Positions 3,904-41,396 of a stretch of DNA of 44,434 nucleotides are shown here, piece by piece. Under the pieces are notes generated by a model. The model searched no databases, was not told where the DNA came from, and was given only the letters and a program-made list of their open reading frames with translations. The DNA is from Candidatus Kaiserbacteria bacterium (GTDB lineage Bacteria; Patescibacteriota; Minisyncoccia; Phycocordibacterales; UBA2100). A program made the translations under genes and the position numbers. The number at the start of each line of letters is the position of its first letter. Positions within the stretch are counted from its first letter, which is position 1. The DNA lies in NCBI GenBank assembly GCA_016217925.1, contig JACRFK010000004.1, forward strand, positions 1-44,434. Reading direction: 5' to 3'.

Positions 3904-3954
3904 AGAGGCTCATTATCCCCGTACAGAGACATCAGTCAACTTCGAAAAAACCGG

Positions 3955-4770: not shown

Positions 4771-4835
4771 AGAGATAGGATTTTAGCATGGTACCCGCTT
4801 TTTGAGCTTTGCGGATGCCTCTGCTAGTATGCCGT

Positions 4836-7256: not shown

Positions 7257-7284
7257 ATAGTACAGGATTTAAGCCACGCGTCAA
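7257..7284 (-). promoter_or_regulatory. promoter for rplJ-rplL
   Basis: TTGACG (7284-7279), 16-nt spacer, TACTAT (7262-7257). Confidence 0.6.
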
Positions 7285-7350
7285 CCCCGTTAGAAATTGC
7301 GCCCACGCTTGCGCGCCCTAATGGGCTGGGGCGGGCTATTTCTAACGGAG
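7285..7350. mobile_element. MITE-like TIR element, copy 2 (66 bp)
   Basis: CCCCGTTAGAAAT / ATTTCTAACGGAG; TCAA on both flanks. Confidence 0.7.
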
Positions 7351-7458
7351 TCAAATTGACATATTTGTCAAATATGCTATGGTTTCCGGCGGGAAGGCGT
7401 CAAAATAAGTGGACGGAGCTCCTCAGTTGTGTCAATCACAATTGAGAGGTAATCGACC

Positions 7459-15029: not shown

Positions 15030-15722
15030 TTACTCCACTGAGGCAGCGAGGTCGGCTTCGGCTTGCTGTATCGCATCGGTGTCCTCAGGCATGTGTGCCT
15101 TGAGGAACTCAAGACGCGCGCGAATGTATTGCGAGGTCGTCTGCGCAGCGATCATGCGGTCGTATGCGACTCGCGCGCTCTTGTAGGCGCCGAGTCGTTC
15201 GAGCAGCTTTCCCATGTTGTGCCACGCAAGCCCGGTCTTCGTAGAATCTATCGCGAGCGCATAATTCAGATAGGTGAATTCTTTTCCACCATCGCCGAGC
15301 AGTTCATATTGATTGGCGATGCTCACGTAGAGCTCGTAGTTGGTGTGCGCTCCGGAATTGATAAGACCTTTCAATCGAGTTATATCCGCGCGCACGCTCG
15401 CCTCAAGCTGTCCGCTGTCTTTATGTGTACCTGCAAAATCCCATGAGGCTACAACGTCTCCCGGCACAAGGGAAAATACCGATGGAAACGCTACGGGCGG
15501 TGTCGCTTTCTGTTTTGTAATGGGAGAGGTCTGTGAAGTGGAGCTGGAAGGGGTCGCGGTTGTCTCTGCCGAGGAAGTTGAGGCCGTTCCCGGTAGAGGC
15601 AGGGACGGTGAGGCACTCTCCTTCGCCCCCAATGTCCCAATAACACCGATGGCGATAAGCACGGCAATACCTGCATAGATTCCATACTCTCTCTTCACCC
15701 CGTTAGAAGCTTCATTCATCAT
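15030..15722 (-). CDS. membrane-anchored protein with TPR-like C-terminus
   Basis: N-terminal TM, S/T-rich linker, AWHNMGKLLERLG TPR-like motif. The start region overlaps TIR copy 3. Confidence 0.7.
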   Translation of the reverse strand: MMNEASNGVKREYGIYAGIAVLIAIGVIGTLGAKESASPSLPLPGTASTSSAETTATPSSSTSQTSPITKQKATPPVAFPSVFSLVPGDVVASWDFAGTHKDSGQLEASVRADITRLKGLINSGAHTNYELYVSIANQYELLGDGGKEFTYLNYALAIDSTKTGLAWHNMGKLLERLGAYKSARVAYDRMIAAQTTSQYIRARLEFLKAHMPEDTDAIQQAEADLAASVE

Positions 15723-15790
15723 AAGAAATATTTATTGTGAGTAACTAAAGAAGTTGCGGCGTGATAATCTCCAGCTGGCTTCTAACGGGG
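15698..15790. mobile_element. MITE-like TIR element, copy 3 (93 bp)
   Basis: CCCCGTTAGAAGC / GCTTCTAACGGGG; TTCA on both flanks. Confidence 0.72.
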
Positions 15791-15810
15791 TTCATATGCG
15801 AAAGAGTGTA

Positions 15811-24221: not shown

Positions 24222-24432
24222 TATATGTCCGTAGTATGTACTAGGAGCGTAAAGTACAGGGGACGTCTGTGAGTATATAAAGGACGTAGAAACTTCGCAA
24301 TCCCCACCCACGGTCCATTTCCCAGGCCAACTTCCAGGCCGACTCTCCGAGTGTTTCGAGCATCGGGTGAGTTCCCCTGTCCCCGTAGCATGTAAGTACT
24401 AGTTTGTAACATGTCGCTCCGAAGCGAGATGA

Positions 24433-24511
24433 CCCCGTTAGAAGTTAAGGAATATTCGACTTTGCAGCCGACTAATTTTTTGAAGCATTTTTGTCGTCAC
24501 TTCTAACGGGG
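24433..24511. mobile_element. MITE-like TIR element, copy 5 (79 bp)
   Basis: CCCCGTTAGAAGT / ACTTCTAACGGGG; TGA on both flanks (3 bp only). Confidence 0.65.
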
Positions 24512-24531
24512 TGATATGATGTCACCATGAA

Positions 24532-24643
24532 TCCCGTTAGAAATCGCGGACACGCGAAGTCGAATTTCTCAATAGGGTACGTTATTGGCGATAACCGAAT
24601 GGGGTGGGCCGCTTTGATAGGCCGCGTCCTATTTCTAACGGGA
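24532..24643. mobile_element. MITE-like TIR element, copy 6 (112 bp)
   Basis: TCCCGTTAGAAAT / ATTTCTAACGGGA; TGAA on both flanks. Confidence 0.72.
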
Positions 24644-27374: not shown

Positions 27375-28481
27375 ATGGCCGGATTCAAGAAAAAGGAAAA
27401 AGCGCCACCAAAGACGACCGGAAGTGGGAGCGACGCTGATATCGAGCGAGCGATTTCCCAAATAAAGACAAAGTTCGGCGACGAATCCATCATGATGCTC
27501 GGTGCGCAGCCGAAGGTGGATGTGAACGCCATCTCGACCGGCTCCATCGGCGTTGATTGGGCGCTCGGCATCGGCGGATTGCCGCGGGGCCGCATCATCG
27601 AGATATTCGGGCCGGAATCATCCGGCAAGACGACGCTCTCACTGCATGCCATCGCCGAAGCGCAGAAAAAAGGCGGCGTATGTGCGTTCATCGATGCGGA
27701 GCACGCGCTTGATCCGGAATATGCCAAAAAGCTCGGCGTGAGGATCGAAGAACTACTCGTTTCCCAACCCGACACCGGCGAGCAAGCGCTCGAAATCGTC
27801 GAATCGCTCGTTCGCAGCGGCAAAATTGACGTCATCGTTATAGACTCGGTCGCTGCGCTCACGCCCAAAGACGAGATCGAGGGCGATATGGGTGCACAGC
27901 ATGTAGGCAAACAGGCCCGGCTCATGTCGCAGGCACTCCGCAAACTGACCGCAATCGTAAGCAAGACGAAGACCGTCATCATTTTCATCAATCAGATACG
28001 CATGCAAATCGGGGTGATGTTCGGCAACCCCGAGACGACGCCGGGCGGCAAGGCGCTCAAATTCTACACTTCGGTACGCATCGATATCCGCCGCATCGCG
28101 CAGATAAAGAAAGGCGACGAAGTGATGGGTGGTCGGCACCGCGTAAAGATCGTGAAGAACAAGATTGCCGCCCCTTTCCGGCAAACCGAATTCGATATGC
28201 TCTACGGCGAAGGCATCTCAAAAGAGGGAGAGGTGCTTGCCCTCGGCGAGAAACTCGGATTTATCCAGAAATCGTCCGGCGGAGCTTACAGCACAATGGG
28301 CCCCTCCTCCGCCAAGGCTCCGAAGGGCGAGGAAACCAAAATGGGGCGCGGCTATGACGCCGCCCGCACTTTTTTGCGCGAAAACAAACCGATATTGAAT
28401 CAACTGCTGAAGGATATTAAAAAAGGATTGAATGAAGGCGGCGGAGTTCAGGGGAAAAGCGCACAACAAGGAGACGAATAG
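27375..28481 (+). CDS. recA: recombinase RecA
   Basis: [27 protein letters not shown] and [17 protein letters not shown]. Confidence 0.98.
28302..28328 (+). repeat. 27-nt element (family B) in frame in recA
   Basis: CCCTCCTCCGCCAAGGCTCCGAAGGGC encodes PSSAKAPKG; matches the tatD copy. Confidence 0.75.
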
Positions 28482-28528
28482 CGCCGAAAAGGTGGACAAA
28501 CGGGATTTTTTGGCTAGAATGCTCCCAC

Positions 28529-29095
28529 ATGTCCATGCTTGCATATAACGAAGTGCTTCCGAAAAAACTGGTTATCGTCGACGGCGAGCCATACGAAGTG
28601 CTTTCTGCATGGGTATTTCGCAAGCAGCAGCGCAAGCCCGTCAATCAGGTAAAGCTCCGCAATTTGAAGACCGGCTCGATGGCCGAACAGACGTTCCACG
28701 TATCCGACAAAGTGGAGGAAGCCGAAGTCGAGTCGCGTCCCGCCATTTTCATATACGAACGCAACGGCGAGTGGTTCTTCCACGAGGCAAGTGACAAATC
28801 AAAACGATTTGCGCTCGATGCGGACCACATCGGCGACTCCGGAAAGTACCTCAAGGGAAATACGGAGGTCGAGGTGCGATGGTTCGATGAAAAGCCGATA
28901 CAGGTGAAGATCCCGGTCAAGATGGAACTCAAAGTCATTGATGCCCCGCCGAATACCCGCGGCAATACGGCCCAGGGAGGCAGCAAGGTCGTGAAGCTTG
29001 AGACAGGGGCCGTGATGGACGTCCCGATGTTCATCGAAACAGGCGATGTCATCAGAATAAACACCGAGACAGGCGAGTATGTCGAGAGAGTCTAG
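28529..29095 (+). CDS. efp: elongation factor P
   Basis: IVDGEPY, KLRNLKTG, PNTRGNTAQGG, LETGA..VP.FI..GD and INTETGEY.ER. Confidence 0.96.
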   Translation: MSMLAYNEVLPKKLVIVDGEPYEVLSAWVFRKQQRKPVNQVKLRNLKTGSMAEQTFHVSDKVEEAEVESRPAIFIYERNGEWFFHEASDKSKRFALDADHIGDSGKYLKGNTEVEVRWFDEKPIQVKIPVKMELKVIDAPPNTRGNTAQGGSKVVKLETGAVMDVPMFIETGDVIRINTETGEYVERV

Positions 29096-29124
29096 GGGAG
29101 AGTACGCCTGCCCCTAAAGGACTG

Positions 29125-29194
29125 CGATTTGTCGTCGCGCTATGCGCGAACAAATCGGGAGCCCGTAGCCTGCGCGGAGCGCTATGCTACCGGG
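29125..29194. repeat. two adjacent hairpins after efp
   Basis: 29125-29157 CGATTTGT..ACAAATCG and 29162-29194 CCCGTAGC..GCTACCGGG; both contain GCGCTATGC. Confidence 0.5.
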
Positions 29195-29236
29195 GTCGAG
29201 CGGGTCTAAATCACTGCTCAGGCTATAATGGCCACC

Positions 29237-30133
29237 ATGCCGGTAAGTATCGTGGCGGAAGGCGGCTCAATGCGCGCGGCGTACGCCGTCGGAGCGGTGA
29301 ACGCGCTTTTTTCTCACTACGGCCTCAAACGGGTCGACGTCGTTACGGGTACCTCGGGCTCGGCTCCTGCAATGGCATTTTACGCTGCCGGCTCCTTCCC
29401 TTCCTGCTACAACGCATGGCGCGGGGAGGTCCCTTCTCCGCGACTTTTGGGTTTCTCGAACATCCTGCACCGGCGACCGTACTTTGATATTGATTATCTC
29501 GTGGACGTCATTGTGCGTGAACGCGCAGGACTGGACGTCACAGCCCTAAAACGCTCCCCGGTGCGGCTTGTCTTACCTGTTACTTCTTACCGCACCGGTC
29601 ACATAGAATATGTAGATTTCAATACATCGAACCTCAACGTATTCGACGTGATGAGAGCCGCGATGAGCATTCCTATCGCCTACAACAAAACCGTCCGGCT
29701 CGACGACGACACCTACTTCGACAGTCACCTCGGAGACCCGCTCTGCCTCGACAACCCGTACATTGCGGGTACGAGAAAGATAATCATCCTCACATATCCC
29801 CTCGACTATGTGTGGTCGCGCAGGAAAAGGATGCAGACCCGTCTGTTCCGTCCTCTCATCAGCTCCGTCGTGTACCGCGCGCTTTTGGCATCGTTTGATA
29901 AGCGGGCGGAGGCAATGCGGCGATGCCATGAATGCATGCAAACCGGGGATGTGATAATCGCGCCGGTGAAGTTGGAGGGGCGACCGCTCGATAACAGTCG
30001 ACAAAATATAGATTTCCTCATCCGGCAGGGATACGAAGACGCAGTCCAAAATCTCCATCTTCAGGGTTTAATCGGTACGATGCGGACGTCGCCGAGGGCC
30101 GACTTCTATTTCCCGCCCCCAACAACCGTATGA
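29237..30133 (+). CDS. patatin-like phospholipase 1
   Basis: AEGGSMRAAY oxyanion loop, GTSGS nucleophile and RAAMSIP..YN....D..Y.D. Start 7 nt after TATAAT. Confidence 0.82.
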   Translation: MPVSIVAEGGSMRAAYAVGAVNALFSHYGLKRVDVVTGTSGSAPAMAFYAAGSFPSCYNAWRGEVPSPRLLGFSNILHRRPYFDIDYLVDVIVRERAGLDVTALKRSPVRLVLPVTSYRTGHIEYVDFNTSNLNVFDVMRAAMSIPIAYNKTVRLDDDTYFDSHLGDPLCLDNPYIAGTRKIIILTYPLDYVWSRRKRMQTRLFRPLISSVVYRALLASFDKRAEAMRRCHECMQTGDVIIAPVKLEGRPLDNSRQNIDFLIRQGYEDAVQNLHLQGLIGTMRTSPRADFYFPPPTTV

Positions 30134-31059
30134 ATATCAGCATCGTAGCAGAGGGTGGAGGTGTCCGTGGCGCGTATGTGTGTGGGGTTATGTGCGCCCT
30201 GTGGATGGAATACGGCTTGCGGCGGGTAGACGTCGCTACGGGGACATCTGCCTCTGCCGGCACGCTCGCCTACTTTACCGCAGGCCACGGACACCGCGAT
30301 GCCTGGGATGTATGGACCAAGGAGGTCGCCTCTCCGGAATTTATCAGCGTGCGTAATCTACTTCGTCTACGCCCGTTGATGGACCTCGATCATCTCATCG
30401 ACGTCGTATTCAGATACCGTTACCCGCTTGATGTCGCCGCAATAAAGAGATCCTCGATGCGATTATTTATTCCGGTCGAATCAGTCACCACCGGCAAGAT
30501 TGAATACATAGATGCACAGCGTTCTCCGTACGATGTCTTCGAAATATTAAAGGCGTCCAGTGCCGCCCCGATTGCGTACAATAAAACAATTGCACTCGGC
30601 GGAGACCGTTACTGCGACCCCTATTTCAACGAGGCTGTCCCACTCGGTGCCCCCGCCCTGGCCAGAACAAAAAAAATAATCATACTCGCCAAACCCCGTA
30701 CCCACGAACTCGCTGTCGAGAGCAACGTTGCCATACATCTCGGCAGACCTTTTATTTCCTCCGCGGTTTATCGCACGATGCTTCACTCCGGCAAGCACCG
30801 GAATGCGCTTATGGAACAGTGTAAAACGCTCGAAGAAGAGGGGCATATCGTTATCGCCCCCGAACATCTCTACGGTAGCGCATTAGGTAACCGACCGGAA
30901 TCCCTTCGATACATGATCCGGCGGGGCTATCAGGATGCCGTCGCACACGGACCACTGCGAGCACTTGTGGAAGATCTGTGTCGCTCACCAAAAAGGAGTG
31001 CTTACTTCGATAGTGATAATCTCGCTCCTATCCGGCCGAGTTTTATGGACACCGTATGA
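30130..31059 (+). CDS. patatin-like phospholipase 2 (tandem paralog)
   Basis: AEGGGVRGAY, GTSAS and KASSAAP..YN....GG..YCD; overlaps the upstream stop (ATGA). Confidence 0.85.
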   Translation: MNISIVAEGGGVRGAYVCGVMCALWMEYGLRRVDVATGTSASAGTLAYFTAGHGHRDAWDVWTKEVASPEFISVRNLLRLRPLMDLDHLIDVVFRYRYPLDVAAIKRSSMRLFIPVESVTTGKIEYIDAQRSPYDVFEILKASSAAPIAYNKTIALGGDRYCDPYFNEAVPLGAPALARTKKIIILAKPRTHELAVESNVAIHLGRPFISSAVYRTMLHSGKHRNALMEQCKTLEEEGHIVIAPEHLYGSALGNRPESLRYMIRRGYQDAVAHGPLRALVEDLCRSPKRSAYFDSDNLAPIRPSFMDTV

Positions 31060-31358
31060 ACATCGGCATCGACATCGTCCGTATTTCACGCGTTGAAGAA
31101 CTGCTGCGCGACCCGGTGCGCGCGGGAGAGGTGTTCGCGCCTGAGGAAATGACCGCGGATGTACAGACGATGGCCGGGCGGTTTGCCGCGAAAGAAGCGT
31201 ATTTCAAGGCGGCCGGTGAAAAACGCGATTGGAAATCGGTCCTGGTATTGAAACACGAAGGGGGGATGCCGTATCTCGTGTGCCCCGAGGAAAACAGAGC
31301 TAAAGTGAGCATCAGCCATGACGGCGAGTATGCAACTGCTATAGTTCTTATCGAATAG
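31056..31358 (+). CDS. acpS: holo-[acyl-carrier-protein] synthase
   Basis: IGIDIV, AGRFAAKEA..KA and SISHD..YA.A.V. Confidence 0.93.
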   Translation: MNIGIDIVRISRVEELLRDPVRAGEVFAPEEMTADVQTMAGRFAAKEAYFKAAGEKRDWKSVLVLKHEGGMPYLVCPEENRAKVSISHDGEYATAIVLIE

Positions 31359-31359
31359 T

Positions 31360-33852
31360 ATGAAAACCGAGTTACGGACCATCACCGACCTTATTGAGTC
31401 GTTTGACGCAAGACGCGGCGACGCAATCATATACAAGAACGGCTTCAGGACCTTCCGCTATTCATATCCCCAACTCGCCTCTCTCGTCCGTAAGTGTGCG
31501 TCGCTGTACCAAAAACACGGGATACAGGCCGGGGACAAAATCGCGCTCTGGGGACCGAATCGTCCCGAGTGGGTCATTGCACATTTGGGTGCCGTATATT
31601 GCGGCGCGGTAGCGGTCCCGATAGACATACAAGCTCTTCCCGAGGCAGCCGCAAAAATCGTGCAGCATTCAGAGGTGCGACTCATTGTCAAATCCGCGCT
31701 GCGCAAGCCGTATCTCACCGAAGTCCCGACCATTATCTTGGACGACTTGGAATTCGACCTCGACCTTCCGGAAGCCGGCCCCCGGGAAGCGCGCGAGGAT
31801 GAGCCCCTGGATATCGTTTACACATCCGGAACGACCGGCGACCCCAAGGGAGTCGTGCTCACGCACGGCAATATCATGTCAAACGTGCGCGGTATCATCG
31901 AACATCTCCGGGTGGACGAACGGGACTCCATCCTGTCGTTGCTCCCGATAAGTCACATGCTCGGACAAACGTGCGGAGTGCTTGCTCCTCTTGCAGCCGG
32001 AATGTCCGTCGTCTTCTTGGGCTCGATGACCGCGGGCGCGATGTTCGCGGCATTCCGGCAGGAACGCATCACCATCGTGCTCGCGGTACCGCGGATACTC
32101 CAAGGAATACGCTCTGGTGTTGAATCGAAGCTGCAAAGCAGCGGAATCGGGCGTATGCTCTCCCGGCTATCAGTGCGGACCGCAGGCGCACCCCGGACCG
32201 TGAAAAAAATATGTTTCTTCCTCATACATCGTCCCTTCGGTTCTTCACTCCGCTTTTTTGTTTCCGGAGGAGCCGCTATTGACGCCGCGACGGTCTCTTT
32301 TGCGGACCGGTTCGGTTTCAAAATACTCCAGGGATACGGTCTCACCGAATGCTCGCCCATTCTGACCGCTGAACGCGAATCGGAAGCGGGAGGCAAAAGC
32401 GCAGGAGTTGTTATCAGAGATGTGGAGCTCCGCATTGCGCCGGACGGGGAAATCCTCGCCCGCGGGCCGAATATATTCACTGAATACTATAAGGACCCGG
32501 ATCGCACCGCAGAGACTTTCAGAGAAGGCTGGTTCCTGACGGGAGATTTCGGAGAGCTTGATGCCGGCGGACATTTGTCTATTAAGGGCCGGAAGAAGGA
32601 GACCATCGTGACTCCGGCGGGAGTAAATGTATATCCGGACGACGTCGAGCCTATTCTGAACGCCGTGCCCGGCGTGAAGGAATCGTGCGTAGTGGGTATA
32701 CAACGCGACGACGGTGAGGAAGTACACGCCGTCGTTATCCCCTCGGACCCGGCGGTCCCGGCATCCGAGATTATGCACGCCGCAAACGGCCGCCTGAACT
32801 CGAGCCAGCACATCCAGTCGCTGTCATTTTGGACCGGTCCCGAATTCCCCAAGACGACGACACTGAAAATTAAACGCGGGCTTGTTCGTGAAAGTGTCAG
32901 AGAGGCGAGAAAAGGTCATGTCGCAGCCGCCGTCGCACCATCGAAGCTGCGAGGCCTGATATCCCAAGTGACACGGGTGCCGGTGGAGGAGATTGCGGAG
33001 AATTCTCGCCTGTATGCCGACCTGAAGCTTGACTCAATCGGGCGTATCGAGCTTTCTTCGCTCATAACCCAGGAGTACTTCTTTGATTTTGAGGAGGACC
33101 ACATCACCGAAACGACGAACGTCGGAAACCTCGAACGCATCGTCGCATCGCGCGCAAAACTAAACTCGTATTTTAACTTCCCCGGGTGGCCGCACTGGCG
33201 GATCATGGCCATCGCACGCTTCCTGGGGATGGAGCTGATTAACGCTAACATTGCACGCTTCTTTATCCGGGAAACCATCCGCGGCAAGGAAAATCTGCGC
33301 GGACTGCACGGCCCCGTCATTTTCGCCGCCAATCACGTGAGCTTCGGCGACCATGCCCTTATATTTCGAGCCCTGCCGTATCGTTATCGCTACATGTTCG
33401 CTTCCCCCGCATTCGCCGAATTCTTTTTCTTGGACAAGAGCAGACCCCCCTGGGAACGCGCGTGGAAAAAGTTCTCGTATTATTACGGGGCAGCAACTAT
33501 GGCGCTTTTCCCCACATCGGAGGTCTACAGCTCAAAGCGCGCGCTCGAACACACCGGCGGCCTCATCGACAGCGGTGAAAGTATTCTCATCTTTCCTGAA
33601 GCCGAGCGCACGCGCACGCGTGAAATGCTTCCGTTCAGAAAGGGCACCGCAATATTACTGAAAAACATACGCGTACCGGTCGTCCCTATCGGTCACCGTG
33701 GGATGGAATATATTTATCCGCGCGATGCCGCATTCCCGCACTTCGGAAAGGCGACGGTCAACATCGGAAAACCGATAACGTTCGGGAAGGAGTCAATAGA
33801 GGAAATTACCACCCGACTCCAGGCAGAGATTGAAAAACTCAGACATCTTTAA
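31360..33852 (+). CDS. fusion of long-chain acyl-adenylate ligase, ACP (PP-binding) and PlsC-type acyltransferase
   Basis: YTSGTTGDPKG, GYGLTECSP and TGDFG; DLKLDSIGRIEL Ppant site; ANHVSFGD (HX4D) and IFPEAERT. Confidence 0.9.
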   Translation: MKTELRTITDLIESFDARRGDAIIYKNGFRTFRYSYPQLASLVRKCASLYQKHGIQAGDKIALWGPNRPEWVIAHLGAVYCGAVAVPIDIQALPEAAAKIVQHSEVRLIVKSALRKPYLTEVPTIILDDLEFDLDLPEAGPREAREDEPLDIVYTSGTTGDPKGVVLTHGNIMSNVRGIIEHLRVDERDSILSLLPISHMLGQTCGVLAPLAAGMSVVFLGSMTAGAMFAAFRQERITIVLAVPRILQGIRSGVESKLQSSGIGRMLSRLSVRTAGAPRTVKKICFFLIHRPFGSSLRFFVSGGAAIDAATVSFADRFGFKILQGYGLTECSPILTAERESEAGGKSAGVVIRDVELRIAPDGEILARGPNIFTEYYKDPDRTAETFREGWFLTGDFGELDAGGHLSIKGRKKETIVTPAGVNVYPDDVEPILNAVPGVKESCVVGIQRDDGEEVHAVVIPSDPAVPASEIMHAANGRLNSSQHIQSLSFWTGPEFPKTTTLKIKRGLVRESVREARKGHVAAAVAPSKLRGLISQVTRVPVEEIAENSRLYADLKLDSIGRIELSSLITQEYFFDFEEDHITETTNVGNLERIVASRAKLNSYFNFPGWPHWRIMAIARFLGMELINANIARFFIRETIRGKENLRGLHGPVIFAANHVSFGDHALIFRALPYRYRYMFASPAFAEFFFLDKSRPPWERAWKKFSYYYGAATMALFPTSEVYSSKRALEHTGGLIDSGESILIFPEAERTRTREMLPFRKGTAILLKNIRVPVVPIGHRGMEYIYPRDAAFPHFGKATVNIGKPITFGKESIEEITTRLQAEIEKLRHL

Positions 33853-33874
33853 AATGCATGCTACGCTTCCCGTC

Positions 33875-35005
33875 ATGAAGTCTCGAGAGCGTGCGGCGGC
33901 GTTGCTGGCGCAAGCCGGCATCACTCCCGACGGGAGCAACCCTTGGGACCCGCAGATACATAACGAACATCTCTTTGACCGCCTGTTCGCCGGGGGTACG
34001 CTGGCACTTGGAGAAAGTTATATGGACGGCTGGTGGGATGTGGAGGACTTATCCGGATTTATTTTCCGGCTATTTCGATCTGACAGCGTGCAACAAATGC
34101 TTCGCATAGGCATGGTCCCCCAGATTATTAAGTCGAAACTATTCAACTTACAAAATCGGAGCCGGGCACGGAAAGTCGGGGAGGACGTCTACGACATCGG
34201 CAACGACCTCTACGAGGCTATGCTTGGTCCGAGCATGGCGTACACTTGCGGCTATTGGAAAAACGCGTCGAATTTGGACGAGGCGCAAGACGCCAAGTTT
34301 GATTTCATTTGCCGCAAGCTCGGCCTTAAATCCGGCGACAATATACTCGACATAGGTTGCGGGTGGGGAAACTTCCTCGCATACGCCGCTAGAAAGTACG
34401 GTGTCTCTGGTGTCGGTATTACTATATCGAAAGAGCAAATCACCTTTGCCCGCGAAGTCGTGCGCGGGCTGGATGTTGAGATACGCTTCGAGGACTACCG
34501 CGATACGCTAGGAAAGTTCGACCATATAGTTTCAATCGGCATGTTTGAACACGTCGGACCAAAGAATTACCGCGTATTTATGAAAAAGGTGCGTAGTCTG
34601 CTGTCCGACGACGGCCTATTTTTACTCCATACGATCGGACACAGCAAAGTATCGCGAAGCCTTGAGCGTTGGTTCAACAAGTATATCTTCCCGAACGGTC
34701 ATTTGCCGTCGATAACACACATAGCCAAAGCGACGGACCGGCGAAATCTCTTCGACAAACCCGTCCTGACGATGGAAGACTGGCATAACTTCGGTGCTGA
34801 TTATGACAAGACTTTGACGGCGTGGTACGCCAATTTTGAACATTCGTGGCCGAAATTAAAGGGAAAATATGACGAGCGTTTCTATCGTATGTGGAAATAT
34901 TACCTACTTGTGTCTGCAGGGATGTTCAGAGCCCGATACCTGCATTTGTGGCAAATCGTGTATTCAAAAAATGGCGTCGTGGGAGGATATACATCTATCA
35001 GATAA
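33875..35005 (+). CDS. cfa: cyclopropane-fatty-acyl-phospholipid synthase
   Basis: LGESYMDGWW, YDIGNDLY, MAYTCGYW, LDIGCGWG, SIGMFEHVG and KYIFPNG. Start chosen 7 nt after TG-C-TACGCT. Confidence 0.95.
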   Translation: MKSRERAAALLAQAGITPDGSNPWDPQIHNEHLFDRLFAGGTLALGESYMDGWWDVEDLSGFIFRLFRSDSVQQMLRIGMVPQIIKSKLFNLQNRSRARKVGEDVYDIGNDLYEAMLGPSMAYTCGYWKNASNLDEAQDAKFDFICRKLGLKSGDNILDIGCGWGNFLAYAARKYGVSGVGITISKEQITFAREVVRGLDVEIRFEDYRDTLGKFDHIVSIGMFEHVGPKNYRVFMKKVRSLLSDDGLFLLHTIGHSKVSRSLERWFNKYIFPNGHLPSITHIAKATDRRNLFDKPVLTMEDWHNFGADYDKTLTAWYANFEHSWPKLKGKYDERFYRMWKYYLLVSAGMFRARYLHLWQIVYSKNGVVGGYTSIR

Positions 35006-35037
35006 AGAAAAAACCCTTGTCGGGGATTTTTCTTTTT
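35004..35037. terminator. bidirectional terminator-like hairpin between cfa and rpsR
   Basis: A-run, CCC-TTGTC-GGG, T-run. Confidence 0.5.
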
Positions 35038-35044
35038 CGATAGT

Positions 35045-35245
35045 TTACTTTTGGATGAACGGGAGGAGACCCATGAAGCGCGCGCGCTTTATCGCCGCTT
35101 CCACTGCTCGTTGCTGCTTGGCGGTGAGACCGCTCTTCCCGCGGCCTACGATGCGGCCGTGCGGGTTGATGAATTGCTTCAAGAGGTCCACGTCTTTGTA
35201 GTCAACGTGCTGAATATCATTCTGTGTGAGGATGTTGTTGCTCAT
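35045..35245 (-). CDS. rpsR: 30S ribosomal protein S18
   Basis: [13 protein letters not shown] and [17 protein letters not shown]. Confidence 0.96.
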
Positions 35246-35246
35246 A

Positions 35247-35705
35247 TTAAAATGGGATGTCGTCCGGATTTATATCATCTTTCGGGTAATCAATGCCTGC
35301 TCCTCCACCTGAAGACACATCGTCGGGTGGTGTCTGGTCATCGCCTCCTGCGCCTCCGCTTGTCGAACGGGCGCCTCCGCTACCCTTGGGGCCGAACTGT
35401 ACGCGGTCTGCGACGACTTCGGTGCGGTACTTCTTCTCACCGTCCTTTTCCCAGCTGCGCGTCTGCAAGCGGCCCTCTACATAGACCGAGCTTCCCTTTT
35501 TGAGGTACTGGTTGACGGTGTCTGCTTGGCGACCGAAGACGACGACGTTGTGGAATTCCGTCTGCTCCTGCTTTTTGCCGTCGCGGTCCTTATAGGTGCG
35601 ATTGGTAGCAACGGAAAAGTTGACGACGTTCATGCCGCTTGGCAGCGCCCGGAGCTCGGGATCACGGGTCAAATTACCGAACAGCATCACTTTGTTGATA
35701 TACAT
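35247..35705 (-). CDS. ssb: single-stranded DNA-binding protein
   Basis: [25 protein letters not shown] and C-terminal DDIPF. Confidence 0.97.
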
Positions 35706-35723
35706 ATGAAAACAAGTGTAACA

Positions 35724-36239
35724 CTACTCGGTCGTAATGTCCTGGAGCGCCTTCTCAAGGTCCTCTTCGGAAACGGGGGCTGAGACTTCCTCGACGCGTC
35801 GCGGCGCTTGCTTGATGACATCGGTGCGCTTCACTTCGCGGAGCTGTGGAGCTTTCATCTTGGCACGCGTATCCTCGCGCACCGTTTGGAACAAGAGAAA
35901 GCGGAAAAAACTCTTGTTTTGCTTGAGGAACGCCTCGATGGTCTGCGCTGCCGCGATAGGAGCTTCAAATTTTATCCATCCAAAGTATCCGCGATCGTAT
36001 TCAACGCTCTTTTCTCCTTCACGTAGAGAAATGGGATATGTGAGCTTCATCAAGGATGGTGCACCCTCGGCGATGAAAGAACCGCTCGTCTTCTCGATCG
36101 CCTCGCGAAGAGTGGAGACGACTTTGTCCAAGTCCTCTTCTTTTGTATCAGGATTGATGTGGTAGCCGACTTCGTATATGCGAAGAGCCGTCTCCGGTGC
36201 GTCGGTTTCGTTCATTTCTATCACTGCATCATCTGCCAT
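35724..36239 (-). CDS. rpsF: 30S ribosomal protein S6 with C-terminal extension
   Basis: YEVGYHINP, LTYPI, GYFGW and RFLL; rpsF-ssb-rpsR synteny. Confidence 0.9.
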   Translation of the reverse strand: MADDAVIEMNETDAPETALRIYEVGYHINPDTKEEDLDKVVSTLREAIEKTSGSFIAEGAPSLMKLTYPISLREGEKSVEYDRGYFGWIKFEAPIAAAQTIEAFLKQNKSFFRFLLFQTVREDTRAKMKAPQLREVKRTDVIKQAPRRVEEVSAPVSEEDLEKALQDITTE

Positions 36240-36288
36240 ATGTCCGAAGACTCTATCACAAGCCCCATAGCCCCGCAACAAAAGAATT

Positions 36289-36316
36289 GGCCCCGCGGCG
36301 CTTGCGCGTCGCGGGG
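36289..36316. repeat. GC-rich hairpin upstream of rpsF
   Basis: GCCCCGCGGCGC-TTGC-GCGTCGCGGGGC. Confidence 0.5.
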
Positions 36317-36341
36317 CTTCAAGGACTTTCGGTGTCGGACG

Positions 36342-36881
36342 CTACTGCTTTCCCACCCTGGGAGGCGGCAGTTCGTTCAACAGCAGCAGCGAAACGTCAA
36401 CGCAGTCGACTAAGAATTGCGCCAGGTTGGTCGCAATCATCCGCATAATTGCATCCGATGCGAAGATGCCAATGAGGTCCCGCTCGAATCGCATGACATA
36501 CATGACGCTGCACGTCAGCGTGTCGCCACTTTTGATTGACCACGTCTTGCTGACGCTGCCGCCGTTCGCGTGGACGATATCGAGCACCCGTCGCGCATCG
36601 TCCTCGTTAGCCGAGGTTTCCATGGCGAAAGTGTGCGCGAAGCCTATTGAGCGAGAGGGTTCATCCCACTGCGCGGAGAAATGCGACCCTTTCGGAAGCC
36701 TGCCCTTCATTGCTCGCAGAATTTGTGCCGATCGTTCGTCGAACGTCTGTGCCGGATCGATACTGACGTCACAGGAGTAGAAGCCAGAAAACTTTTGATT
36801 CTCTGTGACCTTTCCGATGATGAAGGGACCGAGCACGCCTTGTTGATTCAGGGCCGATAGCACCACGTCGAGCTTAATCAT
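36342..36881 (-). CDS. hypothetical protein (179 aa)
   Basis: AGGAG SD upstream of the MIKL start; no recognised motif. Confidence 0.6.
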   Translation of the reverse strand: MIKLDVVLSALNQQGVLGPFIIGKVTENQKFSGFYSCDVSIDPAQTFDERSAQILRAMKGRLPKGSHFSAQWDEPSRSIGFAHTFAMETSANEDDARRVLDIVHANGGSVSKTWSIKSGDTLTCSVMYVMRFERDLIGIFASDAIMRMIATNLAQFLVDCVDVSLLLLNELPPPRVGKQ

Positions 36882-36954
36882 GACCTTCTCCTTGTTGGGT
36901 GGTTCCGCAGGTAGAAAGAACGTGTGAGAGTCGAAGAACAGCAAACACTGGTCG

Positions 36955-38943
36955 TCACGGACTCTTTTCGAGTATGGTGACTACACCGGCGTTTGCATCA
37001 ACTTGAACTAGGTCCCCGTCTCGGAGGAGTTGCGTAGCCACTTTTGTTCCTACGATGCAGGGTATTTTCCACTCTCTTGAAATGATCGCGGCGTGGCACG
37101 TGAGACCCCCTTCATCGGTCACGATCGCAGCTGCGTTCTTTACGTACGGGATCATTTGCGGATTCGTCATGCCGGTGACAAGAATGGCTCCTTTTGGAAT
37201 TTCTTTGACCGCGGTCCAAGATAAATGCATGACGACGTGTCCGGTCGCCTTGCCTTGGTATGCAACCGTCCCGACAATGTCTTTCGGCTGGTCTTTCTCA
37301 ATTAGCTCTTTCCATTTCATGAATTCGTCGCCCGTAACACACCGCCAAGAGTCGTCTTTGCGAATGAACGCACATCCCCGTAAACGGGCGCGGGCATTCT
37401 CTATGGGGGGCTTCTTCCCTTTCAACGCTTCTTGCACCTCATCGGGAGACAGCGCATAGAACTCCTCACGCGTGACGTGGAACTTCTGTTCGAGTAACTC
37501 TGCAAAGGTATCGAAACCGTTCGTAAGTATATTTTCCGCACTTGCGTGCAGCTCAAGCTTTATTTTTCCCATGAACTCCAAAACGTGCCGTGCATAGTCG
37601 TGCCCGGATTCTTTCTTGAGAACGATGTCTTCAAGAGCGCTTTGCATGGGTTGGTCGCAATAGAAATAGACCGCCATCGTCCTTTTCCATATGGCGAGGA
37701 GCCGCTTCCACTCCTCTAGGGCGACCGCGCCCGCAGCAGGCCTCTGATATTCCACGAGTGTGGTATGTACCTCGGCAGCTCGCTTGGTGATTTCCTCAAA
37801 AAAATCTTTGTCGAGCAGTTTCTTCCCCCGCTCGCGAGCCTCTTCCATCCCTTCATCGGTCAGGTAGGCGCGGACCACGCCATCTTCGACCAGTGTCCGA
37901 TACTCAAGCGTCCCATAGCTATCAGGGGCAAGAATAATGTAATGATGTAATATACCGAGATCGGTCTGCGTATAATGTAAATGGTGTTTCTCTTTTTTGT
38001 GGAGAGAAGTGATAGGTCTCGCCTGCAGAATATAAAATTTCCCATCTTCGAGTGCCCATTCGATGTCGCACGGAAAACCATAGTGCTTTTCAATAACGAC
38101 GACAAGGTCCGCCAGCTCTAGTATCTGGGCGTTGTTGAGGACCTGTTCATACGCTTTCGGCACCTCGACCGTGATTAGTTCGTTGCCCTCCATGTCGGCA
38201 GAACGTACGAGGGCCTGACTTTTCTCGGCAATATTGATCTGAATAATTCGGCGCGGGTCCTTTCCGACCAGGTAAGAATCCGGCGTGATTGAGCCTGAAA
38301 CGATGGGTTCGCCGAGGCCGAACGCCGCCTCGGCGAGTAGTTGATTCATATCTTCCGTAACCGGATGGACGGAGAACGCGACGCCGGCAGAGTCGCTTGC
38401 AATCATCTTTTGGACAACTACCGCCACGGATATTTTCTTTTCGTTGAGGCCTTTCTTATGCCTGTATGCGATGGCCCGAGGCGTAAATAATGACGCCCAG
38501 CATCTGCGCATGTGTTTCAGAAGCGTTTGCTCGGTCGTATTGAGGTAACTCTCGAGCTGCCCTGCCCATGAAGCACCTATTGAATCTTCACTTGTTGCAC
38601 TGGAGCGAACGGCCACATGCGGAGCTTCGAGCAGTATGAAATTTTTGACGACTTCAAATAGAAGGTCGTCGGGGATGGGGGCGCTTTCGATCATCGACCG
38701 GATTTCCCGTGATACGGACTCAAGAGATGTAGCGTCCGCGGGATGCACCCGCCGCAACAGGGCGTCGATCTTCGAGTCGAGGCCATTCTGGGACAGGAAG
38801 TGTTCGTATGCCGAGCTGAGTATCACAAATCCGGGCGGTACGGGTACACCGCTTTTTGTCATTTCACCGAGCGACGCGCCTTTGCCACCGGCACTCGGCG
38901 CATCCTGATTATTTATATGCTGTAGTTGTTTTACGAATTTCAT
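36955..38943 (-). CDS. PEP-utilizing dikinase, PPDK_N plus C-terminal phospho-His swivel domain
   Basis: AGGKGASLGEM, VAVRSSATSED..ASWAGQLESYLN, QARPIT and C-terminal TDEGGLTCHAAIISRE. Start set at MKFVK. Confidence 0.88.
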   Translation of the reverse strand: MKFVKQLQHINNQDAPSAGGKGASLGEMTKSGVPVPPGFVILSSAYEHFLSQNGLDSKIDALLRRVHPADATSLESVSREIRSMIESAPIPDDLLFEVVKNFILLEAPHVAVRSSATSEDSIGASWAGQLESYLNTTEQTLLKHMRRCWASLFTPRAIAYRHKKGLNEKKISVAVVVQKMIASDSAGVAFSVHPVTEDMNQLLAEAAFGLGEPIVSGSITPDSYLVGKDPRRIIQINIAEKSQALVRSADMEGNELITVEVPKAYEQVLNNAQILELADLVVVIEKHYGFPCDIEWALEDGKFYILQARPITSLHKKEKHHLHYTQTDLGILHHYIILAPDSYGTLEYRTLVEDGVVRAYLTDEGMEEARERGKKLLDKDFFEEITKRAAEVHTTLVEYQRPAAGAVALEEWKRLLAIWKRTMAVYFYCDQPMQSALEDIVLKKESGHDYARHVLEFMGKIKLELHASAENILTNGFDTFAELLEQKFHVTREEFYALSPDEVQEALKGKKPPIENARARLRGCAFIRKDDSWRCVTGDEFMKWKELIEKDQPKDIVGTVAYQGKATGHVVMHLSWTAVKEIPKGAILVTGMTNPQMIPYVKNAAAIVTDEGGLTCHAAIISREWKIPCIVGTKVATQLLRDGDLVQVDANAGVVTILEKSP

Positions 38944-39005
38944 ATGTCTGTAAGAGATACCAGGCCCCGGCTCGCGCCGGAGCCTGGTATGTATTTCGCG
39001 AAAGA

Positions 39006-39605
39006 TCACGCCGGGATGGGCAGATAGTAGAACTCCACCAGGCGACTCGCATCGAAGCAAAACACGCCGATATCGCCCTTCTTGAAGTTGTATCGAGGTC
39101 CCCACTCGCCGGTGAGTTCCGCAATGCAGCTTTCGCAAAGCGGACCGTGTGAGTTCAAGAGGACGTTTTCGCCAGACGAGAGCGAGAGACCGCGGCTCGT
39201 CACGTAGTCGCCAAGCCTCTTGCCCTCGGCGCGAAGAATGTCGGGCGCGGTCTCCCAGCATGCCTGGGCGCTCGTCCCCTTCGCCTTCGCCATCTCCGGG
39301 TACCACCCCCACTCGTCGAGATTACGGGGATGGATTTCGGGAGCGACGATGAACGTCGTGCGGTCAACATGAGGCGGCGCGTTGAGGTCAAGACTCTGGC
39401 GCGTCCGCTTCATACCGGAGTAGATGTAGTCCTTGAAGACGACACCCTTGAGATGGAACTCGCGGACTTTCGCCGCAACTTCCAGTGCTTCAACTGCAAG
39501 CGAGGCGTCCGTGTCCCAGCCACAGTGCGTGGGATTGATCGGATTCACTTGCAGGTAGTGACGCTGAAGCCAGACCCGCCGAAGCGGGGACTTGATAAGG
39601 GGCAT
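39006..39605 (-). CDS. hypothetical protein (199 aa) with CxxC motif
   Basis: GAGGAG SD upstream; HGPLCESC motif. Confidence 0.6.
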   Translation of the reverse strand: MPLIKSPLRRVWLQRHYLQVNPINPTHCGWDTDASLAVEALEVAAKVREFHLKGVVFKDYIYSGMKRTRQSLDLNAPPHVDRTTFIVAPEIHPRNLDEWGWYPEMAKAKGTSAQACWETAPDILRAEGKRLGDYVTSRGLSLSSGENVLLNSHGPLCESCIAELTGEWGPRYNFKKGDIGVFCFDASRLVEFYYLPIPA

Positions 39606-39777
39606 TGTGCTCTCCTCGTGTTGGGCCGCTCAATATCTACACAAGCTGATTGCCTGCTGACTGAGCGACTGGGCAACAGTTTGGGTGTAACGTCAATTAA
39701 TGTCAATGATTTTAGGACAAAAATGGGCTTATTTGAGTGACTTTTATATGTTTCTAAGAGAGTAGATGTCAGGATAG

Positions 39778-39805
39778 TTGACATTATCCAAATCATGCAT
39801 ATACT
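39778..39805 (+). promoter_or_regulatory. promoter for trmB, probably leaderless
   Basis: TTGACA, 16-nt spacer, TATACT, then ATG 7 nt later. Confidence 0.75.
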
Positions 39806-39812
39806 GGGCCCC

Positions 39813-40571
39813 ATGAACATAACAGAGGCGCTCAAACAATTGGGGCTTGATGATAAGGAGGTTTCGGTCTATACAGGGCTTCTTGAATTGGGAGAGGCTT
39901 CGGTTCTGACGATCTCGAAGAAAACAGGTGTAAAACGCCCGACCGCTTACCTGGTACTTAACGCCCTCGAAGGGCGGGGCCTCGTTTCGCGCACGATAAA
40001 AGCGGGTAAGACACTATTTACTGCGCAGCATCCAAAAACAATTCTCACCGAAGCGGAGTTGCGCGTTAAACAGCTGCAAGACGTTATTCCTCAATTTGAG
40101 GCGATGATGCACCGCTCGGATGATCGTCCCCGGGTGAAGATCTACGAGGGAAAAGAAGCGCTTGATCGCGCGTACGATGACTCTTTTGTTATCAAGGGCG
40201 AGCAACTTTTCATGAGCAACATGGATATCGTACATGACGTCTTTCCACGTACATTGCAAAAAATTGACTATGCGACACTCTCACCGGCATACCGCGTGCG
40301 GGAATTGCTGGCTGACGGTGCGACGTCGCGAAAATATGCGGCACGAGTGAGCGGGGCCTATCGTCAAACACGATTCATACCCGCGGCGTTTTCGCCCTTT
40401 GCGACTGACATCGGAATATTCGGCAACAACACCATCATCACAAGCGGCAAAAAAGAATTCTTCAGTGTGCGTATTGAGAGTGAGGAAGTTACCAGCGCGT
40501 TTCGTATGATGTTTGAGGCTATGTGGCAAATTTCAGGAGATCCCAAAAATCCGCCGGGCGTTGCCCAGTAA
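39813..40571 (+). CDS. TrmB family transcriptional regulator
   Basis: LKQLGL..KE..VY..LLELG, ISKKTGVKRPTAY.VL..L...GLV and PRVKIYEGKE. Confidence 0.88.
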   Translation: MNITEALKQLGLDDKEVSVYTGLLELGEASVLTISKKTGVKRPTAYLVLNALEGRGLVSRTIKAGKTLFTAQHPKTILTEAELRVKQLQDVIPQFEAMMHRSDDRPRVKIYEGKEALDRAYDDSFVIKGEQLFMSNMDIVHDVFPRTLQKIDYATLSPAYRVRELLADGATSRKYAARVSGAYRQTRFIPAAFSPFATDIGIFGNNTIITSGKKEFFSVRIESEEVTSAFRMMFEAMWQISGDPKNPPGVAQ

Positions 40572-41396
40572 CTGTTCCCTCACCTTCTCAAAATCCTCGC
40601 CGCGGATTGCGGCTATTTGGCGGACGACGAGTTCGACGTAGGCCGGTTCGTTGCGTTTGCCCCGGTGCGGTGCGGGGGTCACGTACGGCGCGTCGGTTTC
40701 AGAGAGGAGCATATCGAGCGGAGTGTTTTTTATGACTTCGTCGTAGTCGTGGGTGAAAGTAACTACTCCGGTGAACGAGAGCGTGAAGCCGAAATCGAGG
40801 TACTTCTTTGCGGTCTCCCAATTGCCGGCAAAGAAATGTGTATCCCCCTTTACCTTGGCGTGAGCCTTTAATATCTGGAGTGCATCGTCATACGCATCTC
40901 CGGAGGTTAAACCTCCGGAGATTGAAGGGCGGATGTGGAGCATGAGAGGCTTCCCGAGCTTGTTCGCGAGTTCAATCTGCTGGATGAATACCTCCTTTTG
41001 AATATCTTTGGTACTTTCGTTCGCGCGGTAGTAATCAAGCCCGCATTCCCCCACCGCAATCACTCGCGGACTTTTGCCAAGCGCTTCATACGCCGCCATA
41101 TCAAATACTTCTCCTCGTGACGTAAAGCCTTCCTTGCCCTCCGAAGCCTCGGCGAAGGAGGGACCGAGCTCCTGCGCGTCGTGATACGACTTCGAAGTGT
41201 GGATGGGGTGCAATCCGATGGTCGCAAACACGTTGTCATATTTCTCGGCGAGTTCCACTGCACTCTTAGAAGTATCGAATTGCGTCCCGACTACATTCAT
41301 CCCCACTCCGGCGTCTTTTGCTCGCAGGATAGTCGCTTCGCGGTCGCTGTCGTATGCGACAAAATTCGTATGGGTATGTGCGTCGAAGTATTTCAT
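40533..41396 (-). CDS. tatD: TatD family hydrolase
   Basis: FDAHTH, IGLHP, VGECGLDY, LMLHIR, HFF and LSETDAPY. Confidence 0.93.
   Translation of the reverse strand: MKYFDAHTHTNFVAYDSDREATILRAKDAGVGMNVVGTQFDTSKSAVELAEKYDNVFATIGLHPIHTSKSYHDAQELGPSFAEASEGKEGFTSRGEVFDMAAYEALGKSPRVIAVGECGLDYYRANESTKDIQKEVFIQQIELANKLGKPLMLHIRPSISGGLTSGDAYDDALQILKAHAKVKGDTHFFAGNWETAKKYLDFGFTLSFTGVVTFTHDYDEVIKNTPLDMLLSETDAPYVTPAPHRGKRNEPAYVELVVRQIAAIRGEDFEKVREQLLGNARRIFGIS
41136..41162 (-). repeat. 27-nt hairpin element (family B) in frame in tatD
   Basis: CCCTCCTTCGCCGAGGCTTCGGAGGGC encodes PSFAEASEG; CCCTCC/GGAGGG stem. Confidence 0.75.

Follow-up and report, generated by a model that had tools for sequence, protein, structure and literature searches.

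A 30-nucleotide hairpin unit inserted in frame in recA and tatD of a Kaiserbacteria genome and recurring across bacterial phyla

Why do two unrelated genes of a Candidatus Kaiserbacteria bacterium (Paceibacterota, in the candidate phyla radiation [CPR]) carry nearly the same short sequence in the same reading frame? The stretch of DNA that we analyzed, referred to here as the window, is 44,434 nucleotides (nt) long, and the two genes encode, judging by their closest database relatives, RecA and a TatD-family hydrolase. An earlier reading made from the sequence alone had noted a match of 28 of 33 nt between these genes and had proposed that a mobile mini-repeat creates loops in proteins. We located both 33-mers, at 28302-28334 (+) in recA and at 41130-41162 (-) in tatD, and found the 28/33-nt match and the common reading frame as described; each 33-mer occurs once in the window. 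We propose, with a probability of roughly 0.6, that the two sequences are copies of a very small nonautonomous hairpin repeat, similar to repetitive extragenic palindromes (REPs) and Rickettsia palindromic elements (RPEs), which has inserted at many sites and would spread by copy and paste through a trans-acting activity that recognizes the hairpin. The genes and inserts concerned are as follows.

27375 to 28481, + strand: recA, 368 amino acids (aa); the insert is residues 308-320, at the turn of a predicted beta-hairpin in the C-terminal domain.
28302 to 28331, + strand: recA copy of the 30-nt unit, 10 codons, core CCCTCCTCCGCCAAGGCTCCGAAGGG, tail CGAG; 44.1 bits with the covariance model of the family.
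40533 to 41396, - strand: tatD, 287 aa, with two inserts, residues 79-88 and 157-166.
41133 to 41162, - strand: tatD site-1 copy of the unit, core CCCTCCTTCGCCGAGGCTTCGGAGGG, tail CAAG, encoding PSFAEASEGK; 49.5 bits with the same model.
40899 to 40928, - strand: tatD site-2 insert, 30 nt in frame, encoding PSISGGLTSG; a perfect palindrome, TCTCCGGAGGTTTAACCTCCGGAGA, of a different sequence family.

All five differences between the recA and tatD 33-mers are transitions at codon positions 1 or 2, and every one changes the amino acid, while all 11 third codon positions are identical (the tatD 33-mer reads PSFAEASEGKE in the gene's own frame). We concluded from this pattern that the likeness lies at the DNA level; it is the reverse of the outcome that selection on a peptide would be expected to give. 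Among inverted 33-mer matches in the window, 28 of 33 was the highest value and was equalled by one other pair (1330/2020). In five mononucleotide shuffles the maxima were 24 to 26 of 33, and the binomial expectation is about 0.003 pairs. An exact-seed repeat finder had missed the recA/tatD pair because the two copies share no exact 9-nt seed. We found no further copy in the 44 kb, either with a degenerate 33-mer or 21-mer (up to 3 mismatches) or with the covariance model, which was trained on 33 distinct copies and gave 15 bits for its next-best match in the window.

We compared the window with 88 related DNA loci (about 950 kb in all; L-numbers, which below also denote loci from other bacteria) and with related proteins (P-numbers). 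Both copies proved to be in-frame palindromic repeats in conserved protein genes that are missing from orthologs. Most of the 120 best RecA relatives are 354 to 357 aa long and read GGAYST-GETKMGRG where the window RecA is 11 residues longer. The closest RecAs (P0001-P0005, 92 to 94% identical) are insert-free and read YST-GETKMGRG, and alignment with Escherichia coli RecA leaves an 11-residue gap at exactly the position of the insert. At the DNA level (a caret marks the junction), the empty recA site reads TAC AGC ACG^GGC GAA ACT, and the filled site in the window reads ACA ATG GGC [CCC TCC TCC GCC AAG GCT CCG AAG GGC GAG] GAA ACC. The gain of 11 aa consists of the 10-codon unit and one extra ATG (Met) codon at 28296-28298.

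At tatD site 1, the shortest orthologs (269 to 270 aa) read ELG-EGGKEF-TSRG where the window has ELG-PSFAEASEGKEG-F-TSRG, and P0123/P0126 and L001-L004 likewise have the empty site, ELG-EGGKEF. The empty form in the DNA (L001-L004 and L007) is CTC GGC^GAA GGC GGC AAA GAA TTT. L134 and L005 have exactly 30 nt more at GGC^GAA, and the window allele has the same thirty bases but is nine bases shorter just downstream. The net gain in TatD is only 7 aa because the 10-codon unit is accompanied by this loss of 3 codons. The sequence-only reading had predicted an indel of 9 to 11 aa in alignments with orthologs, which is what we found for RecA (11 aa) and not for the TatD of the window (net 7 aa). Among the 120 TatD orthologs, site 1 was empty in 71 and filled in 50, and site 2 was empty in 60. 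Two of the loci, L001 and L002, are syntenic with the window (ftsK, recA, efp, patatin genes, acyl-AMP ligase, ssb, rpsF, and tatD) and encode RecA 93% identical to that of the window; their recA and tatD sites are both empty.

These comparisons bear on whether the residues could instead be an ancestral, variable low-complexity loop, or a peptide motif that RecA and TatD acquired under independent selection, with the likeness in nucleotides due to chance or codon bias. Both sites are variable-length loops in orthologs, and Ala, Ser, Gly, Lys, and Glu are abundant in the peptides, as such an origin would have it. But the empty form is shared by distant relatives, including E. coli RecA, and the residues are missing from all of the close ones named above (RecA P0001-P0005, TatD P0123/P0126, and L001-L004). 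Convergence of peptides does not account for 11 of 11 identical third positions in the face of five amino acid differences, and the same DNA is read elsewhere in other frames and on the other strand. Chance is opposed by a match that exceeds the shuffles and by at least 119 further loci with the core, described below, against 0.03 expected. We give an ancestral loop or convergence almost no credence, and both are contradicted by these results.

The unit is 30 nt long, not 27 nt as first read, and consists of a 26-nt quasi-palindrome, CCCTCCTTCGCCAAGGCTTCGGAGGG, followed by CA(A/G)G; the consensus of all copies is CCCTCCTTCGCCAAGGCTTCGGAGGG-CAAG. It folds into a 6-bp stem, a 3x3 internal loop, an inner helix of 2 to 3 bp, and a tight loop, which makes it an imperfect palindrome of 20 to 40 bp able to form a stem-loop. 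The calculated energy of the consensus RNA is -12.9 kcal/mol in one sense and -13.4 kcal/mol in the other, about 2 standard deviations (SD) better than shuffles. The tatD site-1 copy has one difference from the pan-bacterial consensus and folds at -12.7 kcal/mol. The recA copy has three and folds at -6 kcal/mol, no better than shuffles, with most of the folding energy lost; the earlier remark that this copy lacks part of its stem was correct. We found no stop codon in any of the six frames of the unit. Because its length is a multiple of three and all six frames are free of stops, insertion anywhere in a gene adds about ten residues.

In the 33 distinct copies, the stem pairs are formed in 90.9% of cells, and four pairs show compensatory changes (1-26 CG/GC, 4-23 UA/GC, 5-22 CG/GC, and 12-15 CG/UA). 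None of 500 shuffles reached the covariation score, which collapsed when the partners were slid by 1 to 3 columns. We take the covariation as support for the hairpin and not as proof, since the copies are related. Third codon positions are also conserved within the unit. They are 86% identical in the insert at tatD site 1 (13 distinct filled orthologs), compared with 45% in the flanking 99 codons, and 75% identical in the reversed inserts at tatD site 2, compared with 45.5% in the flanks, with positions 9-18 almost invariant. These values suggest selection on the nucleotide sequence in both orientations or else renewal of the copies from a conserved source.

The insert lengths that we checked among related loci (21, 30, 33, 60, and 63 nt) are all in frame and stop-free. 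Because every length is a multiple of three and open, the inserts are, judging by their reading frames, almost certainly translated rather than removed. We rejected an intein, an intron, and a translational-bypass element on the same grounds, and neither an intein nor a self-splicing intron could be as short as 30 nt. In the AlphaFold2 model of TatD (mean predicted local distance difference test score [pLDDT], 84.4), residues 79-88 and 157-166 are low-confidence loops. Insert 157-166 comes directly after strand 151-156 (LMLHIR) and would therefore lie on the barrel face at which the strands terminate. The RecA model is poor overall (mean pLDDT, 58.9) and acceptable in the C-terminal domain, where residues 310-318 (pLDDT below 50) lie between strands 304-307 and 321-325. 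This position corresponds to the hairpin turn YSY-KGE-KIGQG of E. coli RecA. The sequence-only reading had placed the copy in this segment of RecA; the models agree with that and put the RecA and TatD inserts in predicted loops. RecAs with the insert lose the precomputed Pfam RecA_C call (PF21096).

Other Kaiserbacteria carry the unit in the genes for IleRS, another aminoacyl-tRNA synthetase (aaRS), and FtsK. Within tatD, a second hot spot, site 2, is located between LHIR and N-AYDD; half of the orthologs have nothing inserted there. In L006 it holds a forward unit, AGA [CCC TCC GTC GCC AAT GCT ATG GCG GGC AAG] AAT. In L005 the entire unit is reversed at the identical R^N junction, AGA [CCT GGC CTT CGA AGC CTT GGC GAA GTA GGC] AAT, and L003 has a third version, 2 nt further on and in another frame. 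We rejected flipping of the loop in situ as the origin of the two orientations, as the 4-nt tail also switches sides. The palindrome at site 2 in the window (RNA fold, -20.9 kcal/mol; z = -6.5) occupies the hot spot of the relatives' 30-nt unit, and we found no second copy of TCTCCGGAGGTTTAACCTCCGGAGA in the roughly 950 kb of Kaiserbacteria DNA. Two other palindromes of the window, at 1327-1362 (TCCTCCGGAGGA, then a CTGCCTTCGGCAG hairpin at about 1331) and at 2015-2058 (made up of TCCGCCGGAGGCGGA and TCCGCCTCCGGCGGA), are of the CCGGAGG type and share that motif with the site-2 palindrome. They contain the inverted 28/33 pair at 1330/2020 and may be the other mini-repeat to which the sequence-only reading alluded.

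Re-use of a junction was also seen outside tatD. In IleRS a single junction, between two Cys codons of a zinc knuckle, holds the unit in forward orientation in L098/L182 and in reverse in L006. A class I aaRS gene adjoining tatD has, in some genomes, an exact +30-nt unit between the W and P codons (TGG, CCN) of the LGWP motif; this site holds other palindromes in further genomes and is empty in the remainder. A discrete gain of 30 nt was therefore observed at tatD site 1 (L134 and L005), tatD site 2 (L006), and the aaRS site. At least two types of junction occur in recA (GGC^CCC in the window and ATC^CCC in L007), and double inserts occur there as well. Nested doubles, in which a differing second unit lies inside the first, always have it after position 12, the apex of the hairpin. 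We found them in tatD of L006, L154, L155, L184, and L200 and in recA of L007; the inner copy of L006 is read in a different frame, as PPSHKASEGH. The junction C^(G)AA is common to five Kaiserbacteria events (GGC^GAAGGC, GGC^GAAAC, CGY^AATGC, and GCC^AAGGC twice). As a target motif it is unproven, with no such preference in 96 pan-bacterial flanks.

Presence and absence are patchy. On a neighbor-joining tree of 120 TatD proteins, which is noisy, at least 23 changes are needed for site 1 and at least 24 for site 2. The recA allele of the window, including its odd extra ATG, recurs in L008 (32/33 nt), whose recA is only 78% identical overall; recA of L001, which is closer to the window (84%), is insert-free.

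The pair does not stand alone: many copies exist in other genes and genomes. We scanned one genome per species with CCYTCCTYCGCCRARGCTYCGRARGG and found at least 119 matching stretches (a lower bound), compared with about 0.03 expected by chance (1.2e12 positions x 4^-19 x 2^-7). The matches listed come from at least nine bacterial phyla, with taxa as labelled in the database records. Alphaproteobacterial carriers, isolates among them, include Mesorhizobium, Bradyrhizobium, Brevundimonas, Maricaulis, and Taklimakanibacter; further carriers are Verrucomicrobiota (many of them Opitutaceae), Planctomycetota, Acidobacteriota, Nitrospirota, Bacteroidota, Omnitrophota, Tectomicrobia, and many classes of Patescibacteria. 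At each of the seven degenerate core positions a single base is dominant in 80 to 95 of 96 copies. The flanks of these copies show zero conservation 5' of position 1, which is a sharp boundary, and a decaying C-A-N-G-C-C on the 3' side. About 85 to 96 of the at least 119 stretches have unrelated flanks. Viral contigs rarely carry the core (5 stretches), and BLAST with a 35-mer gave no match in plasmid, phage, and E. coli collections, where a low-complexity filter could in principle hide matches.

About 31 matches represent one alphaproteobacterial context, consisting of a tRNA gene, a CATCCTGCTTCGCGC...GCGCGAAGCAGGATG hairpin, the core, and the start of an 80-aa GIY-YIG gene. The distance from the core to that start is 6 to 9 nt, and the GGAGGG arm of the core is positioned like a ribosome-binding site. 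The 80-aa gene follows the core in 17 loci, most of them alphaproteobacterial, including L018, L028, L043, L052, L053, L071, L089, and L107. As a candidate mobilizer we rejected it: it belongs to one syntenic context, the window has none, and elsewhere we found weak or distant matches only.

The core is also read in frame in proteins confirmed with Pfam, among them LeuRS, RpoC (the beta' subunit of RNA polymerase), another class I aaRS, a PurP-like ATP-grasp enzyme, trigger factor, a DUF255 protein (reverse sense, PSEALAKEG), and, in the LLRQGxGGQA frame, two copper P-type ATPases and CoxII. A copper P-type ATPase gene holds or adjoins the core in L029, L063, L069, L078, and L080, which are from unrelated phyla, and the position of the core within the gene differs between L069 and L078. 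A MITE-like element (miniature inverted-repeat transposable element) of about 150 nt with the core at its center is common to Nitrospirota, a planctomycete, and CPR Harrisonbacteria (L021, L065, L121, L050, and L080). The long element of L021 has a further hairpin nested inside. Three RNase P RNA genes have the core as a hairpin at their periphery. It lies close to the 3' end in two alphaproteobacteria and forms the tip of P12 in an acidobacterium, and in each case its sense is CCCUCCGAAGCCUYGGCGAAGGAGGG:

L039, 5079-5104: core in RNase P RNA.
L077, 154-179: core in RNase P RNA.
L066, 2689-2714: core in RNase P RNA.

These contexts raise the question of whether the hairpin is chiefly a functional nucleic acid module, such as a DNA or RNA site bound by a widely conserved factor or a hairpin controlling RNA stability or translation, that is kept by selection. 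It would pass between lineages by gene transfer and homologous recombination, with the insertions in proteins as by-products, and would be compatible with mobility. Synonymous sites are conserved inside inserts in both orientations, the stem has compensatory changes around an almost invariant center, CGCCAAGGCT, and the 26-mer is near-invariant across phyla, all of which a selected module would explain. The core serves as a structural helix in RNase P RNA, and the alphaproteobacterial GGAGGG arm, 6 to 9 nt ahead of the GIY-YIG start codon, would be a sequestered ribosome-binding site. In one orientation the RNA of the core reads CCCUCC-GAA-GC[CUUG]GC-GAA-GGAGGG; purine-rich 3x3 loops and CUUG tetraloops are stable. 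But no context is common to all copies, which lie in coding sequence in either sense, in RNA genes, and in intergenic DNA, and the stem of the recA copy is degraded. No Rfam family matches the hairpin (only tRNAs and RNase P were recognized), the calculated stability is only about 2 SD above shuffles, and no candidate binding factor was found. We consider a chiefly functional module possible, though on the unlikely side.

Taken together, the loci show that the unit is inserted and discrete, that it occurs in both orientations, nests at the apex, and re-uses exact junctions, and that its hairpin is conserved and widely distributed. Exact re-use of a junction in both orientations, together with nesting at the apex, points to an activity that prefers certain structures or sequences and not to random insertion with later filtering by selection, because selection could not distinguish neighboring in-frame positions within one loop. 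According to the hairpin-repeat model, spread would be a transposition-like or templated copy and paste acting on the hairpin, and the enzyme would be supplied in trans from a gene away from the copies. Insertions that land in surface loops of proteins like RecA and TatD would survive, and the conservation of nucleotides would reflect the recognition needs of the spreading process or of some host factor. The earlier interpretation is supported, in that close orthologs lack the residues, many other copies exist, and both inserts fall in predicted loops; mobility we can only infer, with neither a mobilizing enzyme nor a target-site duplication found.

Several observations weigh against this model. 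Filled sites are longer than empty ones by exactly the 30-nt unit and lack a target-site duplication, and we found no terminal inverted repeats beyond the hairpin itself. There is no transposase in the window, and clustering of the genes within 2.5 kb of 122 copies gave no transposase and no protein family that recurs beside them, save GIY-YIG in the one alphaproteobacterial context and copper ATPases in five loci. The rarity of the core in viral contigs and the lack of matches in the plasmid, phage, and E. coli collections leave no vector evident. Copy number is modest, with 2 copies in the 44 kb of the window and about 15 outside tatD in the roughly 950 kb. Every filled tatD site-1 allele shares a change in the downstream flank (..EGF versus ..KEF), and so the patchy distribution at this site may reflect one old insertion spread by homologous recombination; for tatD site 1, such an old allele is, on these alignments, a fair alternative. 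Finally, a merely tolerated selfish repeat should decay, yet third positions of the inserts are 75 to 86% identical, compared with 45% in flanks, and the 26-mer is nearly invariant across phyla. This near-invariance points to constraint or to very recent spread, neither of which appears separable from mobility.

The sharp left boundary and the lack of a target duplication would also be expected if the unit were written from a fixed template, small and circular or tandem, that a reverse transcriptase or a repair polymerase copies at breaks with no genomic donor. The near-identity of the sequence in unrelated genomes fits this as well, and CC is enriched 3' of the CAAG tail; this is the unit's own start, as if copying runs into a second round. 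CPR relatives carry reverse transcriptases, such as the bAvd and RVT_1 pair in L005. This pair, a bAvd-like gene and RVT_1 at 3887-5268 about 5 kb from tatD, is probably a diversity-generating retroelement. But the case is circumstantial, in that no template locus or enzyme was found, the retroelement-like locus of L005 is not common to other loci, and subfamilies with coordinated stem changes fit diverging genomic donors better. We regard writing from a fixed template as improbable.

A more far-reaching reading takes the 26-nt hairpin for a "word," nearly universal and constrained in sequence, that a widely distributed enzyme system recognizes or writes. This word would spread over at least nine phyla and be kept even at synonymous sites in essential genes and in RNase P RNA. 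We advance this only tentatively and are inclined to doubt it. If it were true, the hairpin would be a new class of minimal mobile or functional element and not one more lineage-specific REP. Carriers from Kaiserbacteria to Bradyrhizobium, Opitutaceae, Acidobacteriota, and Nitrospirota have almost the same 26-mer, and its synonymous sites are conserved too, a pattern for which simple decay of selfish DNA and vertical descent both fail to account. The repeated use of positions in both orientations and the nesting at the apex make the mechanism testable in culturable carriers.

For CPR bacteria, the unit is a concrete source for the lineage-specific loops that are often seen in their proteins. 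Their genomes are tiny and have almost no intergenic space, and a stop-free repeat that is always in frame may be the only kind able to persist there. The inserts split Pfam domain calls and can mislead marker-gene alignments and phylogenies.

We also noted features of the window apart from recA and tatD. We counted at least 7 occurrences of the motif TCTAACGGGGT(C/G)A, on both strands, where 0.08 would be expected; most lie in short gaps that separate long open reading frames (ORFs). The motif could belong to promoters or operators, or it could be a further small repeat.

1479-1500, 1556-1572, 7280-7296, 7339-7355, 15693-15709, 15778-15799, 24428-24444, 24500-24516, and 24632-24648: motif TCTAACGGGGT(C/G)A.
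11450-11530: tandem array with a 9-nt period (GGN GTN GCN) in an ORF with a peptidoglycan-binding domain (11119 to 11949, - strand).
About 36260-40554: about 4.3 kb, between rpsF and tatD, absent from the syntenic loci L001/L002.
36955 to 39312, - strand: PEP-utilizing enzyme (PPDK_N and mobile domain), within these 4.3 kb.
39795 to 40571, + strand: TrmB-family regulator, in the same segment.

How does the unit compare with known repeats? Full-text searches with the core, its substrings, and its six-frame peptides found no description of the element, with subscription-only literature outside their reach. In-frame palindromic repeats are textbook knowledge in the case of Rickettsia, and REPs of this kind have been described from a few species; a case in CPR/Patescibacteria goes beyond these. 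A MITE can be rejected for the unit, as filled sites have exactly 30 nt more and show neither terminal inverted repeats beyond the hairpin itself nor a target-site duplication. Hairpin elements of organelles, such as the GC clusters of yeast and the double-hairpin elements of fungi, are short, GC-rich, and mitochondrial. Repetitive hairpin-forming elements are also described from sponge mitochondria (PMC2800124). Like the present unit, organelle hairpins insert in intergenic DNA, in the variable regions of rRNA, and at times in coding sequence; distant hosts carry similar ones, and they have no known means of movement. They differ in being mitochondrial, in having other sequences, and in usually not being in frame; the likeness is one of description.

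The sequence-only reading had offered RPEs as the analog. RPEs are elements of about 150 bp in ten families of Rickettsia (Ogata et al. 2000, 2002, as summarized in PMC10969869). Going by that summary, they are palindromic, lie in frame in unrelated conserved genes as well as in noncoding DNA, add peptides compatible with the fold, and have no known transposase. The analogy holds for this behavior. It needs to be qualified as to size, the unit being a single hairpin of 30 nt compared with about 150 bp (RPE units of about 100 to 150 bp belong to sequence families of Rickettsia, and the host here is a Kaiserbacterium), and as to restriction to one lineage, given the at least nine phyla. The distinction from RPEs is drawn from their description in that summary and not from consensus sequences. 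One record with the core, L090, is labelled "uncultured Rickettsiales."

REPs provide the other comparison. Di Nocera et al. 2013 (PMC3733652) sorted the REPs of more than 80 species into GTAG- and CGTC-tagged superfamilies and found no dedicated transposase for CGTC REPs. The core and its six-frame peptides are not in five supplementary files of that paper. Within 2.5 kb of the 122 copies no gene of the RAYT (Y1 tyrosine transposase) kind is a recurrent neighbor, and there is none in the window. The logo of the 96-copy flanks shows no unpaired terminal GTAG or CGTC (TGTC/CCTC) tag and no CCA-like tail of the kind found in CGTC REPs. REP stems are 8 to 9 bp long and start with AT, whereas the present stem has 6 bp and an internal loop, and the copies in the window are single rather than head-to-head or tail-to-tail dimers. 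The likeness is that REPs too are stem-loops of 20 to 40 bp, in families common to several species and phyla, and some are intragenic. Intragenic REPs are often in DNA repair or replication genes and in tRNA synthetases, and most are in Opitutus terrae and Rickettsia conorii (PMC3733652). The hosts of the present unit include recA, a DNase-family gene, and several aaRS, and many of its matches are in Opitutaceae.

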